IMG/VR virus record: IMGVR_UViG_3300046059_000013
Reading direction: 5' to 3' (one strand)
From: a virus
DNA length: 64,000 nucleotides
Numbering within the stretch: the first letter of the stretch is position 1; each line of letters opens with the position of its first letter. The notes below the pieces were generated by a model, which saw only the letters and a program-made list of their open reading frames with translations, made no database searches and was not told the origin of the DNA. Shown here piece after piece: positions 6,387 through 53,601 of this stretch. The translations under genes were made by a program, and so were the position numbers.

Positions 6387-6597
6387 CCTAGGGGAGTAAA
6401 TTCGGGAAACGTTGATATGGTGGAGGGTGCTTTGTTCGCTGAGCGGGATGCCCCCGGGCCGGGGGTCTCTGTAAAGAAGTTCCCGGTTTCCAACACCCTC
6501 CCGCAGGGTGGAACCCGACACCAGGCCGCAAGGCCGGTCGGAGAAAGCCCCACCCCCGAACATGGGGAGAAGGTCACCACACAGGGCTTATGAAGGA
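6387..6597 (+). ncRNA. Candidate stand-alone TnpB omegaRNA / non-autonomous IS605 derivative
   Basis: 6545-6577 AAGCCCCACCC..TGGGGAGAAGGTCAC matches the right end at 53357-53390. Hairpin-rich non-coding gap with an upstream GAAACGTTGATA promoter-like motif. The left boundary is a guess. Confidence 0.55.
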
Positions 6598-21426: not shown

Positions 21427-21535
21427 CTCGCTCTCGGTGACTCATTCTATCAGAGCGGAATAAAAAGGGAGCGAACCAGTCTGGCCCGGGCCTAGCTGTT
21501 TCGCCGCTTCTTCCGTGGGTTCAACCCCTAGTGGG

Positions 21536-21570
21536 GGAACCATACGGCTTTAGCCGTGGGAGGATGTCAG
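21536..21570 (+). mobile_element. Orphan IS605-type right end (hairpin + GGGAGGATGTCAG)
   Basis: 30/35 identical to the reverse complement of 43602-43636, with a compensatory stem change. Confidence 0.7.
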
Positions 21571-34610: not shown

Positions 34611-34703
34611 CGCTTAATCGTGGTTTAGGGGTAATGGGCTTAAAGGGGGTGGGTTCGTGGACGGGGCTGGCAAGTTTCCACGACTTCATCTGTGGGTGGG
34701 TTC

Positions 34704-34933
34704 CTAGTTGTCGCGTTCGTCCCACCAGTATGGCATCCTGTCGCGGTACATTTCAGAGAAGTTGAAAGCCATGCAGAGTGCAAAGAACAACACGCCTAAA
34801 ACCAGGAGCGACGCAATCCAAAGCGGCGACAACACCCAAACCCACGACCACTCGATAAAGCCCGTCAGCTTCAACGCGACAAAAACAATTGTTAGGAGGG
34901 CGACGAAAAGGCCCCACGCCCGCTACTCCCCAT
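34704..34933 (-). CDS. Small phage membrane protein (LLTIVFVALKLTGFIEWSWVWVLSPLW), 5' frame break
   Basis: Recognisable widespread phage motif. The ATG (MGSSG) is one frame off the conserved body at G-runs. Confidence 0.6.
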
Positions 34934-42160: not shown

Positions 42161-42190
42161 GCAAGATAAGGGCTACGCACCTGTGTGGAA

Positions 42191-43582
42191 GTGGCTTCCT
42201 CCCCGGCCTTCACGCCGGGGCTTCCTTGTTCATTCACGAGCACCAACCCCCTGAGTGGGTTTGCAACCTCTCGTGTCCAAAGGCGTTGATTCCCCACAGC
42301 CCGTGGGTACTGGTTCGTCGTTGACTTCAAGTTTCTTGATGCCCCGTTGCCGAATCTCACGCGCCGCGTTCTGGTCGCGACCCATCGTGAGCCCGCACTC
42401 AGGGCAATCATGCTCGCGCTGCGACAACGGTTTCGGGCTCCGATGCCCGCACCGGTGACAATCGCTCGTCGTGTGCTTGGCGTTCACGCGGACAAGATGT
42501 CCGCCGTGCTCTTCAAGCTTGTACTCCAAGAACCGGAACAGGGTCCCCCACGCGGCATCATGCACGCTTTGGGCGCGGGAGCCTTGGGTGAGTCCCGTGA
42601 GGTTGTCCTCGACGGCGACCACCTGGTACTCCTCGGCCAGGTACCGTGCGACCTTGTGAAGGTAGTCCCTGCGCTGGTTCTTGATTGTGCGATGCAGTTT
42701 GGCAACCTGTTCGCGTTGCTTGTGCCAATTGTTGCTGCCTTGTTCCTTGCGGGACAAGTGTCGTTGTTCTCTCTGAAGCTTCTGCAAGGACTGTTCGAGG
42801 TGACGAGGGTTGGGAATCGTGTCCCCGTTGCTGAGGGTTAACAACTCCGTGAGGCCCGCGTCCACGCCCATCACGCCGCCTTCGGCCTGGGGCTTGGCGA
42901 GGTTCTCCTCGGGCACGTCGAAGGTGATCAATGCCCACCAGTCGCCGTGTCGGTCTTCTTTTACCGTGCATGTTTTTGCCTTGCAGTTTTCATCCAGCCA
43001 CGGCGGCTTGTCCTCGTGGAACGCTCGAACCCATCCAAGCTTGGACAAGTACACCTCGCCATCCCGGTACTTAAACGAGCCGTGTCCACTATTCCGGGAT
43101 TGGGGATACGTCATCGAGCGGTACGCTGCGCGTCCCTTGTAGCGCGGGTACTCGTGGTTGGTGTCGGGGTTGAAGAAGTTCTGGAAGGCTCGGTCCAGGC
43201 GCTTCACCACGTTTTGCAAGACCTGCGCGGGCGGGTCCTGAAACCGTGGATGGTCCTGCTTGAATTGAACCAATTGGGCCTGTTGCTCGGTTTTGGAGAT
43301 GCTTTCTCCGTACTCTTTCCACAGGAGTTCTCGATGTTCAAGGCACAAGTTGTACAGTGTCCGACATAGGCACAGCGTCCAGCCCAACTCCTCCTGCTGG
43401 TCTTGCGAAGGGTACAATCGGAGTTTTAGGGTGCGTTTGGGCATTGGGCGTCGTGCGGATATACGCAAGGGGGTTGTGGGGTTTGGGTCTTTTGGTCAGA
43501 GTGTGCGTGGTGCCATGCTCCTTGTTCCGACCCCTTCGATTCATCCCCAACCTAAAGAACAGGAACCCTTTTGACGGAAGAG
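42191..43582 (-). mobile_element. IS605-family element, tnpB only (IS-1)
   Basis: Right end CCCCGGC..GCCGGGGAGGAAGCCAC. Left end TTAA|CTCTTCC...TTTAGGTTGGGGATGAATCG resembles the left end of IS-3. Confidence 0.75.
42230..43444 (-). CDS. tnpB: TnpB RNA-guided nuclease
   Basis: RuvC D (GVDAG), E (AVED), D (RDQNAA); CxxC zinc ribbon. Confidence 0.95.
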   Translation of the reverse strand: MPKRTLKLRLYPSQDQQEELGWTLCLCRTLYNLCLEHRELLWKEYGESISKTEQQAQLVQFKQDHPRFQDPPAQVLQNVVKRLDRAFQNFFNPDTNHEYPRYKGRAAYRSMTYPQSRNSGHGSFKYRDGEVYLSKLGWVRAFHEDKPPWLDENCKAKTCTVKEDRHGDWWALITFDVPEENLAKPQAEGGVMGVDAGLTELLTLSNGDTIPNPRHLEQSLQKLQREQRHLSRKEQGSNNWHKQREQVAKLHRTIKNQRRDYLHKVARYLAEEYQVVAVEDNLTGLTQGSRAQSVHDAAWGTLFRFLEYKLEEHGGHLVRVNAKHTTSDCHRCGHRSPKPLSQREHDCPECGLTMGRDQNAAREIRQRGIKKLEVNDEPVPTGCGESTPLDTRGCKPTQGVGARE

Positions 43583-43800
43583 TTAAACCCATCGCCCCGA
43601 ACTGACATCCTCCCACGACTTAAGTCGTGGGGTTCCACGGTCACAGACCGTGCCCCCGACTCCGGCAGGTTCCCGTCGTCGGCGGTTTCCTTGGCGGCTT
43701 CAAGTTCTTGCTCGGCGGCTTGAACGTGTTCGAGAGCTTCCTCGTTCACGCTCCCGGGCCTTTGGTGAAGACGTGTTGCTCGTCGCAACGAGGACACCAC
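43552..43800 (-). CDS. Small protein whose C-terminus runs through the orphan right end
   Basis: Helical N-terminus, then EPHDLSRGRMS (typical tnpB-end translation). Confidence 0.45.
   Translation of the reverse strand: MVSSLRRATRLHQRPGSVNEEALEHVQAAEQELEAAKETADDGNLPESGARSVTVEPHDLSRGRMSVRGDGFNSSVKRVPVL
43602..43636 (-). mobile_element. Orphan IS605-type right end
   Basis: GGAACCCCACGAC-TTAA-GTCGTGGGAGGATGTCAG with no tnpB upstream. Confidence 0.75.
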
Positions 43801-43869
43801 TTTATGACATAGTTCCTAGGCGCGGGAGAGGTCAAAGCCATCGCCCTGAAGATAGTGCCGGGGGCAACC

Positions 43870-48531: not shown

Positions 48532-49850
48532 GTAAACTACCCGTCCCGAGCTTGAGCGGGCTCGGAACGGGCTTTGCCTGTGTTCTCCCCCTCTAACGAC
48601 GCATCATGAGTGGCGTCGCACGAGAAACACTCGTTCGGGGTCATCGTTCCAGACGTTAAGGCCAGTTTACCGTGGCCCGTGCCCACGGACGACTTTTGGT
48701 CCATGGACACAAGGTACTTGTACCCGATTGACTTAGCAGCGTTGTAGTCCCGGTCGTTCTCGTACCCGCACGCCTGGCACGAAAACCAACGGTCCTCAAG
48801 GTTCTCTTTGCTGGTGTGCCCGCACCGGCTGCACGTGCGCGAAGTGTTCACGGGGTTCACCTGTTCAACCTGGATACCCAAGGCTTGGGCTTTGTACTCT
48901 ACGTACTCCACGAGTTGCCGGAACGCCCACTCGTGGTAGCGTTTCCCGCCTTGCAATTGGTCGCGGATGTTCGTGAGGTCCTCGAACGCGATTACGTCCA
49001 CGCCTTGCTCGGCGGCGTGGTCTACAAGGCGTCGGCTCACCACGTGCAGGTGGTGTTGGTTCCAGCGGGCCTCGCGACTGCTTAAGCGTTCAAGGGTGCA
49101 GTGGGCGCTTTGCGTGCCTGTTTGTTGGAGGCTGGCGCGCGTTTTCTCGTATTCTTCCCTGCGGTGGTTCAGCGGGCCGCCGGTGTGGAAGTGGGCGGTG
49201 CTGGTGGTGGCGAGGTTTTCGATGCCGAGGTCCACGCCCAAGACCGTGGGGTGTTGGGGCGTCTCTGCATCGGTTGTCTCGCGCTTCATGACGACGTGCA
49301 GCCACCAGTCGCCGTCCCGGTGGTGCAGCGTGGCGCCACCAGGCTCGTAGTCCTCGCTTAACAGGTAGTCGCCGTGCGGGGTTCCTTCGGGTTTGTTGGA
49401 GAGGTGGAGTTGGGCTTGGATTCTTCCGTTTGTGGTGGCTAGGCTTACTGTTTTGTTTTGGAGTTGAATTGTGTAGCAGCGTTGGTCGTAGTTCACGGTT
49501 GCACTCGTGAACCTGGGCTTGCCGGGGTTGTGGCCTTGGCGGCGGCGTTCCACGCAAGCTTTGAGGGCTTCTGCCGCTGCGCTGCGAGCCTGTGTCACGT
49601 GGTTGGCGTGGAGGTCTGAGCTGGTTTTGATGGGGTGGTAGGTGGCGTCGTGGAGTTCCGACTCGCGTGCCTCCAGGTTGCTGTTGTCGTTCCAGCCTTC
49701 GTCCACGACGCGGTTTGCTGCCGCTCGGTACTGGTCCAGCGTGTCCCAGAGGTCGTCTTTGGCGTCGCTGGGGACGGTGAGTCGGATTCGGACGGTGCGA
49801 CGTGTCTCTGCCACCAGAACACTCATGGTGGTGGGCCTACATGGTTCCTT
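48532..49850 (-). mobile_element. IS1341-type element (IS-2); left end not resolved
   Basis: Right end AAAGCCCGTTCCGAGC...GCTCGGGACGGGTAGTTTAC. Confidence 0.7.
48537..49826 (-). CDS. tnpB: TnpB, haloarchaeal IS1341 type
   Basis: RRTVRIRL start; GVDLG, FEDL, DRDYNAA; CSRC..CQAC. Confidence 0.95.
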   Translation of the reverse strand: MSVLVAETRRTVRIRLTVPSDAKDDLWDTLDQYRAAANRVVDEGWNDNSNLEARESELHDATYHPIKTSSDLHANHVTQARSAAAEALKACVERRRQGHNPGKPRFTSATVNYDQRCYTIQLQNKTVSLATTNGRIQAQLHLSNKPEGTPHGDYLLSEDYEPGGATLHHRDGDWWLHVVMKRETTDAETPQHPTVLGVDLGIENLATTSTAHFHTGGPLNHRREEYEKTRASLQQTGTQSAHCTLERLSSREARWNQHHLHVVSRRLVDHAAEQGVDVIAFEDLTNIRDQLQGGKRYHEWAFRQLVEYVEYKAQALGIQVEQVNPVNTSRTCSRCGHTSKENLEDRWFSCQACGYENDRDYNAAKSIGYKYLVSMDQKSSVGTGHGKLALTSGTMTPNECFSCDATHDASLEGENTGKARSEPAQARDG

Positions 49851-49911
49851 TGGCCGATTCCTCTCCGACCCAACCCTAGCGGGTTGGGAAAGAGTTTCCT
49901 CGGCCGATAAG

Positions 49912-50457
49912 ATGAGCAACATGGAGAGACTTGTAGCACTCGACCTTGAAACCGGCGGCCTTGACCCCTCCGAGCACTCCATCATCGAAATAGCTGCGTA
50001 CCATCCCGAGAGCGGGGAAACGATACAGCGCCTTGTCCGCAACGAAACGTACCATGTCACGGACCAGGCGATGGACGTGCATGGATACAAGATTCGCGAC
50101 CTCGCCAGCGCAAACTACGTCGGCATCGTGGACGAGGAAGTAAAGAATTGGCTCGACGAAACCGTTGACGGGAACGCCATCGCGGTAGGAATGAACGTTT
50201 ACTTTGATTTGGCTTGTTTGGGGGAGCACATGCCGCAAACGGCGAGCAGGTTCAGCCATCGCACGCTGGATGTTACTTCCCTTCAGTTCTTCCGAGATTG
50301 TTGTAGAGGCCAGCGTCTTGGAGCATCCGCAAGCTACTTCAAGAATCACGTCTTCGAGGACGAATACACGCACTCGGCGCTTGACGACGCGAAGGTCGCG
50401 TGGAAGGTTGTCGAAGCACTCATCAGCGACGTTGACAAAGAGGTGTTTCCATCGTGA
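49912..50457 (+). CDS. DEDDh 3'-5' exonuclease
   Basis: ALDLETGG, NVYFD, HSALDD. Confidence 0.9.
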   Translation: MSNMERLVALDLETGGLDPSEHSIIEIAAYHPESGETIQRLVRNETYHVTDQAMDVHGYKIRDLASANYVGIVDEEVKNWLDETVDGNAIAVGMNVYFDLACLGEHMPQTASRFSHRTLDVTSLQFFRDCCRGQRLGASASYFKNHVFEDEYTHSALDDAKVAWKVVEALISDVDKEVFPS

Positions 50458-51524: not shown

Positions 51525-51734
51525 GCGAGAACGAGGGATTCGTGCCTACGTTGACGCTTGCGTGCCAGTCGTTTGGTTGCGAGGAGGAGACGCGCGTGAC
51601 GGATGCGCTCGAGGAGGCCACGTGGCGCTGTCCCGAACACATTAGCTTCTCCTGCGCGAAGCCCCCGCCCTTCAGGGTGGGGATGAAGCGCCCAAACACC
51701 TATACGTACAAGGGTCTTTCCATGCGGCAGAGCC

Positions 51735-52139
51735 GTGGACTACGATACGAAGTCGGGAAGCCACTCCATCTACGCTCTCCAGTACCACCTCGTGTGGTGC
51801 ACCAAGTATAGGGAACTCCTGATGCTTCCCGAGGCCCGGGATGCCCTGAAGGAGAAGATCCACGATCTGTTTGAACAGTCTGGCATAGACATCCTCAACA
51901 TTGAGGCGGATGCCGACCACGTGCACGTTCTCTTCCGAGGAACGCCGACGGTGACGCTGTCCCGGGTCGTCAACAAGATGAAGGGGGCCACGAGCAAACA
52001 CCTTCGGTCGCAGTTCCCAGAGCTGGGTGCAAGGGATCACCTCTGGAGTCCTGCCTACTTCCTAGCTACGACGGGGCAGGTCACGCTGGACCGGTTGATG
52101 GAGTATGTGGACGAGCACGCCGAGGAGCGTGAAGCCTAG
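51735..52139 (+). CDS. tnpA: TnpA Y1 HUH transposase
   Basis: YHLVWCTKYR, DHVHVL, LWSPAYF. Confidence 0.95.
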   Translation: MDYDTKSGSHSIYALQYHLVWCTKYRELLMLPEARDALKEKIHDLFEQSGIDILNIEADADHVHVLFRGTPTVTLSRVVNKMKGATSKHLRSQFPELGARDHLWSPAYFLATTGQVTLDRLMEYVDEHAEEREA

Positions 52140-53350
52140 TGCCCATGCGCACCCTAGAACTCCGGTTGTATCCGTCCCAGGACCAGCACGAGGCGATGGG
52201 GCAAACGCTGGGCTTGTGTCGGATGCTCTACAATCTCTGCAAGGAGCACCGCGAACTCGCCTACCGGGAGTACGGGGAGAGCGTGTCCTGGTATGAGCAG
52301 AAGCGACAGTTGGTTCAACTCAAGAAGGACCACCCTATGTTCCAGGACGTGCATAGCCAAGTGCTCCAGAATGTGACCGAGCGCGTGGACACCGCGTTCC
52401 AGGCGTTCTTCGACGGTCGCAACGACTACCCAAACTGGAAGAGCCGCAGCGACTACCGCTCCTTCACGTACCCGCAGGAGGGCGGGTTCCGGTACCAGGA
52501 TGGCGAAGTGTACCTGTCGAAGATTGGGTGGGTGCGAGCCTTCCACGAAGACAAACCACCCTGGTACGACCCCGACACCTGCACACCCAAGACCTGCACG
52601 GTGCGCGAGGAACGGTTCGGGGACTGGTGGGCAAGCATCACGTTCGACGTGCCCGAGGAGAATGTGGTGCGTGAGCCCGCGGACCCGGGCCTCGTGGGCC
52701 TCGACGCGGGCCTCACCACGCTGGCCACGTTGAGCGATGGCACCAAGATCACGAATCCACGCCACCTCAAGGAGTCCCAGGAACGCCTCGCCAAGGCGCG
52801 ACGGGACCTGTCACGCAAAGAACGAGGAAGCAACAACTGGCATAAGCAGAGGCAGCGCGTAGCGAAGCTCGAACGCAGGGCCGCCCGCAAACGTCAAGAC
52901 CACTTGCACAAGGTGTCTCGACACCTGGCCGAGTCCTACACGTGCGTCGCCGTCGAGGGAAACCTAGCGGGACTCACCCAATCAGAGGACCACGCCCAAG
53001 CCGTTCACGACGCCGCCTGGGGCACCCTGTTCGAGTTCCTGGAGTACAAGCTCGATGAACACGGAGGCCGGCTCGTTCGCCTAGAGGGCGAGAATCAGGC
53101 CTACAGCACCAAGGACTGTAGTGAGTGCGGGTACCGCAACCACGATTTGTCCTTGGAGGACCGATCATGGACCTGCCCCGACTGCGGGGCAATGCACGAT
53201 CGGGACATCAACGCGGCCAGGAACCTAGAGCAACGCGCACGCACCAAGCTCCAAGACGAAGGAACCGACGTACCCATGGACCGTGGGGAATCAACGCCTT
53301 TGGACACGAGAGGTTGCAAACCCACTCAGGGGGTTGGTGCTCGTGAATGA
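52139..53350 (+). CDS. tnpB: TnpB RNA-guided nuclease
   Basis: GLDAG, AVEG, RDINAA; CSEC..CPDC. Confidence 0.95.
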   Translation: MPMRTLELRLYPSQDQHEAMGQTLGLCRMLYNLCKEHRELAYREYGESVSWYEQKRQLVQLKKDHPMFQDVHSQVLQNVTERVDTAFQAFFDGRNDYPNWKSRSDYRSFTYPQEGGFRYQDGEVYLSKIGWVRAFHEDKPPWYDPDTCTPKTCTVREERFGDWWASITFDVPEENVVREPADPGLVGLDAGLTTLATLSDGTKITNPRHLKESQERLAKARRDLSRKERGSNNWHKQRQRVAKLERRAARKRQDHLHKVSRHLAESYTCVAVEGNLAGLTQSEDHAQAVHDAAWGTLFEFLEYKLDEHGGRLVRLEGENQAYSTKDCSECGYRNHDLSLEDRSWTCPDCGAMHDRDINAARNLEQRARTKLQDEGTDVPMDRGESTPLDTRGCKPTQGVGARE

Positions 53351-53601
53351 ACAAGGAAGCCCCACCCTTCTAGGGTGGGGAGGAGGTCACCGAGTTTGTT
53401 CCTGCTCCGGGCACGAGCAAGGCCGAAAGGCTGGGTTGCAAGTGTGAGCGCGTGGAAGGCGTGGCGAATGGGCCTCTCTTTGTTGCTTTGGGTTGCAAGA
53501 TGCATTCGAGTCAAGCTGAAGATTGACTTCTTCTCCGGTCTCTTCTTACGGGTCGGAGAGACCCGCAAAGTTGATGCATTAACAACCGCCTGGCAACAAG
53601 G

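Follow-up and report, generated by a model that had tools for sequence, protein, structure and literature searches.

Haloarchaeal PATEs (palindrome-associated transposable elements) and IS605 elements undergo frequent deletions and attract other insertions (PMC3119063), and the HgcC RNA has been tied both to the right ends of IS605 elements and to the transcripts of PATEs (HgcC/sotRNA; PMC4615843). In ISDra2, the 3' end of the RNA pairs with positions -103 to -105; the pseudoknot so formed is recognised by TnpB, and the working scaffold measures 116 nt (PMC10097598). The proto-arrays that have been proposed arose by serial duplication of omega-RNA segments belonging to the nuclease itself, and they are situated downstream of the gene (PMC10691335). 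[quoted passage not shown] Our analysis points with good confidence to a different arrangement, namely a PATE relic beside an unrelated IS1341-type element, in which the upstream stump is dead and at most one guide junction works.

The window (the whole stretch of DNA that was analysed, 64 kb in length) is part of a 91-kb contig and has a G+C content of 59%. Judged by its sequence, the source resembles a tailed virus infecting halophilic archaea: the window encodes a major head protein (PHROG 264), an S49 prohead protease and acidic proteins, and the closest matches to its transposon ends come nearly all from Halobacteria. Searches with the portal-like gene, the phosphoesterase and IS-1 TnpB among viral contigs and GenBank phages returned no close viral relative; the best distant match to the phosphoesterase reached 32%, on a contig (L088) without useful synteny. 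A gene of the calcineurin-like/DNA repair exonuclease type (PHROG 7339) occupies 44781-43870 (minus strand) and has no relative above 36% identity. Rfam at its gathering thresholds gave no match anywhere in the window. The window holds three tnpB genes, those of IS-1, IS-2 and IS-3; the genes of the last two elements are:

48537-50090, minus strand: IS-2 tnpB ORF, of a different family from IS-1
51723-52139, plus strand: IS-3 tnpA
52139-53350, plus strand: IS-3 tnpB

IS-3 is a complete IS605 element (51643-53390, plus strand) with both ends intact and the target motif TTAG. Further right-end-like hairpins lie at 6545-6577 (plus strand), with the terminus GGTCAC as in the family of IS-1 and IS-3, and, weakly developed, at 34667-34704.

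The junction in question comprises the following features:

43602-43636, minus strand: orphan right end, with guide tetranucleotide GAAC (43635-43632), hairpin (43631-43612) and cleavage motif TCAG (43605-43602)
43583-43601, minus strand: spacer, or would-be guide, of exactly 19 nt, terminating in the IS-1 target motif TTTAA (43587-43583)
43536-43582, minus strand: IS-1 left end, apparently decayed, assigned from the homology boundary and a left-end profile
43552-43749, minus strand: small acidic viral ORF, continuing through the relic, the spacer and the IS-1 left end

In IS608-type elements the guide tetranucleotide pairs with the cleavage motif, and GAAC and TCAG of the orphan right end fit this rule; its hairpin is perfect over 8 bp and folds as DNA with a z-score of -3.6. 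Since no tnpB is found upstream of it, the label "orphan" is correct. The claim that IS-1 follows 19 nt behind this end is right in its coordinates, the end running from 43636 to 43602, the spacer from 43601 to 43583 and IS-1 starting at 43582. The small acidic ORF shows strong viral codon usage in its first 25 codons (43749-43675, in frame). From 44500 to 41700 the minus strand contains no stretch of four or more consecutive T, so that co-transcription or read-through across both junctions appears possible; a search for a TATA pattern at 44100-43440 found no match, and a sigma-70 promoter scan is uninformative for archaea.

A genome pattern search for right ends of the orphan type yielded 71 loci in two main families, all 71 of which diverge directly after TCAG, the point where the search pattern itself stopped. 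The first family is an IS605 element with tnpA and tnpB. The second comprises 23 loci with no tnpA or tnpB match inside, 20 of them with TTAC and a left-end hairpin and with a length of 269-277 bp; this gene-less family is what Dyall-Smith et al. (PMC3119063) call a PATE, and it is multi-copy, with 9 to 11 matches in each of two genomes (G001 and G002). What is left of it at the orphan locus is:

43602-43686, minus strand: PATE 3' relic, with clear homology over 43674-43602 and a profile alignment extending to 43686

By blastn, the relic is 93-95% identical over 72-73 bp to three loci (L013, L056 and L057), and by nhmmer positions 189-274 of the 274-position model align to 43686-43602 (E 2.9e-19). 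The 3' part of the full PATE matches Rfam HgcC with 40.8 bits (E about 1e-6), which is below the gathering score, while the orphan reaches 19.4 bits (E 0.12), about half the score of the full element. The PATE family as a whole (about 270 bp; L011, L013, L022, L056 and 19 further loci) is haloarchaeal and TTAC-targeting, and its right end is preceded by a long conserved internal RNA structure of about 200 nt; the intact parent family is probably a standalone omega-RNA carrier. Elsewhere in the window, a second relic consisting of a 3' part only (21510-21570, plus strand) derives from the IS605 family with tnpA and tnpB (L010, L017 and others). The TCA at its end provides the stop codon (TGA) for the convergent gene 22499-21567, and this relic likewise is without a pseudoknot hairpin.

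Upstream of the relic, identity falls sharply from 95% to the level of a forced alignment; within 350 bp in this direction neither TTAC nor a left-end motif was found, and the left-end profile had no match upstream. From these observations, together with the viral codon usage at 43749-43675, it follows that about 70% of the PATE, left end included, is missing at the orphan locus and that 73-85 bp remain. Two features further upstream bear on how this state arose:

43831-43850, minus strand: near-copy of the spacer, 249 bp upstream, with 16 of 19 positions identical, or 17 of 20 with the next base (compared with 43601-43582)
43746-43841, minus strand: possible CxxC micro-ORF of 31 aa, with no codon signal and no PHROG match

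One may take 43875-43602 as a single old PATE that decayed in place or was partly overwritten by viral sequence, 43850-43831 then being the remnant of its left-end hairpin and not the start of a gene. The 240 nt that separate the ATG at 43841 from the right end come near the 232-238 nt between ATGAA and the end in the family, and in global alignment the 200 bp upstream of the relic weakly resemble the missing 5' part (p 0.01 when compared with shuffles and 0.04 with real windows), a likeness that we count against our own explanation. However, nhmmer searches with profiles for the 5' part and for left ends gave no match at 43870-43690 on the minus strand, no long match turned up in 121 haloarchaeal genomes or in plasmids, and both the abruptness of the fall in identity and the strong in-frame viral codon usage at 43749-43675 speak against decay in place, which we therefore consider very unlikely. 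The pseudoknot hairpin discussed below would be absent even if it had happened.

The downstream copy of the 17/20 direct repeat, which is the spacer, starts exactly at the first base past the right end. Its counterpart upstream overlaps the ATG of the candidate micro-ORF and is preceded by CTATC, which is none of TTAC, TTAA and TTAG. A match of 16/19 occurs within 300 bp for 0.24% of the 19-mers in the window and within 1 kb for 0.46%; as the near-copy was found post hoc among four guides, the effective probability is nearer 1-2%. The repeat may have come from a local duplication, from chance or from a decayed left-end remnant, and we give about an even chance to the spacer being a duplicated copy of 43850-43831 that arose in a small local duplication. 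We also tried the right flank of IS-1 as a continuation of the micro-ORF copy and rejected it, the alignment being at shuffle level (36% of shuffles were as good). Because the right flank does not continue the micro-ORF, a duplication history requires an additional rearrangement, and there may never have been an empty site in which spacer and right flank were joined.

Besides its left end, IS-1 consists of the following parts, with its flank:

42230-43444, minus strand: IS-1 tnpB (IS1341-type), with ATG at 43444, 404 aa and the RuvC D-E-D motifs present; tnpA is absent
42191-42310, minus strand: IS-1 omega-RNA core and right end, with the terminus GCCAC against GTCAC in all relatives
42171-42190, minus strand: IS-1 right flank, the guide of IS-1 TnpB

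IS-1 TnpB carries all three TnpB Pfam domains and matches the TnpB of ISDra2 with an E of 6.5e-45. The loci of its closest TnpB relatives (57-70% identity) were compared. When IS-1 is aligned with L005, L003 and IS-3, conservation starts at the TT.. motif and there is none upstream of it; TTAA stands directly 5' of the IS-1 left end, at this homology boundary, and the left-end profile, whose training set included IS-1 itself, matches 43581-43536 with an E of 4e-5. The left-end assignment, which had been named as a point where the original prediction might fail, was thus borne out by the alignment with three relatives and by the profile match. The right end stops at 42191 and is followed by TTCCACACAGG, just as had been claimed.

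The ends of IS-1 nevertheless differ from those of its relatives. In L005, L003 and IS-3 the guide tetranucleotide, which stands before the left-end hairpin and 17 nt from the cut, predicts the target by the IS608 pairing rule (AAGT/TTAA, AATA/TTAT and AAGC/TTAG, respectively); IS-1 has GGGT against AAGT in L005, and the match to TTAA is lost. In addition, the left end of IS-1 carries one extra base, and its hairpin (43564-43545) is made up mostly of G-T pairs and is unfolded as DNA (z +1.24 against -2.54 in L005). The changes at the TnpA recognition motifs lie at 43582-43540 and 42195-42191 (minus strand), while tnpB is intact. With its ends altered where TnpA reads them, IS-1 is probably immobile, and its sequence suggests an older insertion with an intact nuclease gene. 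The 94-nt omega-RNA core of IS-1 (42217-42310) is 97% identical to that of IS-3 (53270-53363); the two TnpB proteins are only 62% identical, and the target motifs inferred for the two elements differ (TTAA against TTAG). Both omega-RNAs have GTGAA at the candidate pseudoknot partner, where the relatives have GTGGC or GTGGT.

The orphan right end and that of IS-1 are identical at 23 of 35 positions, mostly in the generic end motif. The longest local match between the relic and the scaffold of IS-1 or IS-3 is 11-12 nt, the terminal motifs are TCAG for the orphan and CCAC/TCAC for the family of IS-1, and the target motifs TTAC and TTAA, respectively. The proposal of a right-end duplication does not survive this comparison, since the two ends belong to separate element families by scaffold, terminal motif and target motif alike. 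The question of a working scaffold can be addressed through the pseudoknot, a requirement that we carried over from ISDra2 and from covariation. Among 54 loci with the orphan-type right end, 48 carry at -105 to -124 a hairpin whose loop contains CTGGC and can pair with the terminal GTCAG; moreover loop and terminus covary, with GTGGC accompanying the end GTCAC and TTGGC the end GTCAA (L084 and L086), and the pseudoknot is supported by this covariation. At the orphan no complementary 5-mer occurs within 200 nt, and the partner hairpin is absent. In the IS-1 family the candidate partner lies at -47, so that the IS-1 scaffold appears to be built differently. We infer from this comparison that IS-1 TnpB cannot be loaded with the relic RNA, and that the same probably applies to any other TnpB, because the hairpin that should hold the pseudoknot partner is missing. 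None of the three tnpB genes in the 64-kb window shares the scaffold or the end of the relic.

These results bear directly on the idea that IS-1 TnpB draws two guides from one transcript as an embryonic array, which in its strongest form has the upstream guide regulating 43850-43831 without cutting. All parts do share a strand and are not separated by any T-run, the spacer has the length of a guide (a fact that we hold against our own explanation as well), the right-end hairpin is perfect, the catalytic motifs of TnpB are intact, and the match 249 bp upstream is of a kind that few 19-mers of the window have at such a distance. Yet the upstream RNA would be a stump of 73-85 nt with a foreign scaffold and no predicted pseudoknot partner hairpin, and the near-match, itself a post hoc find, has three mismatches, one of them at seed position 4, and lacks TTAA, TTAG or TTAC in front. 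The layout is not conserved either: the upstream right end is absent in the IS-1 relatives L002, L003 and L005, of which L002 and L005 offer flanks of only about 27 and 58 nt. Proto-arrays, finally, are downstream duplications of a cognate omega-RNA (PMC10691335), whereas the extra end here is single, foreign, truncated and upstream, so that the likeness to a type V origin fails along with the two-guide reading, to which we attach a very low probability. Still less credence is due to the specific version in which a viral TnpB takes up the upstream RNA in spite of its truncation and is led by the 19-nt guide to bind the start region of the micro-ORF without cutting, as a self-regulatory mini-guide derived from a foreign transposon end. 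If it were true, a second guide would have been gained from a foreign transposon end with no duplication of the nuclease's own RNA, and this would bear on the origin of type V arrays and of TnpB-derived regulators.

The close spacing of two unrelated elements calls for comment. Under uniform placement, rough arithmetic (four same-strand pairs of orphan right end and left end, 25 nt, 64 kb) puts the chance of such an adjacency at about 0.002, which argues against pure uniform chance. The minus strand of the window, however, has only 15 occurrences of TTTAA, and most of the virus presumably is essential, insertions being confined to tolerated sites. The pattern of a right end, 0-30 nt and a left end had 5 matches in 301 Halobacteria genomes. 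Four of these are chance matches without a right-end or left-end hairpin and were rejected; one is genuine (L084, in G175 at about position 1500, reverse strand), where an IS605-type right end is followed after about 14 nt by the decayed left end of a related PATE. A control bin of 60-90 nt had no genuine case. With one genuine independent case and none in the control bin, such adjacencies seem to arise sporadically between unrelated elements. At another locus (L034) the right end is followed after a few dozen bases by the start of a tnpA reading frame, with no left-end motif between; two IS605 elements may have fused head to tail there.

The short distance might alternatively be mechanistic, though of no functional consequence, if TnpA sitting on the right-end hairpin already present, or single-stranded DNA exposed there, had steered IS-1 to the first matching target motif downstream. 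The low figure for uniform chance, the short spacer of the sole similar case (with nothing genuine at 60-90 nt), and the observation that mobile elements of Haloquadratum target other mobile elements (PMC3119063) are in keeping with such tethered or preferential insertion. On the other hand, one case against zero makes no statistic, and in none of 70 loci with the orphan-type right end do the next 120 nt downstream contain a left-end motif; we regard steering of this kind as unlikely.

The empty site that the original prediction proposed to look for in relatives did not turn up: the exact junction had no match in viral contigs, the right flank none in metagenome contigs, and the pattern of spacer and near-copy again none in viral contigs. 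As the collections searched yielded neither an empty nor a PATE-only allele, nor any close relative of the virus, the order of the insertions is one that we infer. In our preferred explanation, a PATE relic beside an unrelated element, the PATE would have lost its left end and most of its RNA by a deletion or an illegitimate crossover that joined the stump to the small viral ORF. The spacer may, with about even odds, have been duplicated in the same crossover that truncated the PATE and would then represent redundant DNA, which would explain why IS-1 was tolerated so near the relic. IS-1 would then have been placed after TTAA by a TnpA acting in trans, for which IS-3, which encodes one, is the likely source, and it would have landed at one of the rare TTTAA sites, where the sequence was already disrupted and dispensable. 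A working guide would come from the downstream junction only, because IS-1 TnpB loads its own omega-RNA, while the stump belongs to another scaffold family and is without the pseudoknot hairpin.

With the PATEs (PMC3119063; PMC4615843) the family from which the relic derives shares the absence of genes, the IS605-type terminal hairpins, the 4-nt target motif outside the left end, the absence of target duplication, the HgcC-like 3' RNA, the presence of multiple copies in the hosts, and the proneness to deletions and neighbouring insertions. The locus differs in that only the 3' 73-85 bp are kept here, as against core deletions that keep both ends (PMC3119063), in that the host of the relic is a virus, and in that the neighbouring element is adjacent and not nested. 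IS-1 resembles the IS1341 group and ISDra2 TnpB (PDB 8bf8, 8h1j; PMC10097598) in its solo tnpB, its left end preceded by TT.., its hairpin right end, its guide in the right flank and its intact RuvC motifs. In contrast to ISDra2, the inferred target of IS-1 is TTAA/TTTAA and not TTGAT, and its left-end hairpin and both TnpA motifs look mutated.

Two scaffold/guide junctions near one tnpB, at guide-length separation, are also found in the omega-RNA arrays of Altae-Tran et al. 2023 (PMC10691335); here, however, neither end is a copy of the other, the additional one stands upstream, is truncated and comes from a different family, a single spacer is present, and relatives do not share the layout. 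The succession of a right end, a spacer of guide length and a tnpB should not be taken for a proto-array unless the ends are cognate and the scaffold is whole. As to standalone omega-RNAs acting in trans (PMC10691335; Meers et al., 10.1101/2023.03.14.532601), the parent PATE family probably is such a carrier, whereas the relic is without the 5' part of the scaffold and without a matching TnpB in the 64-kb window. Taken together, the locus looks like a further instance of IS200/IS605-family elements and their relics accumulating in the dispensable corners of a haloarchaeal virus.
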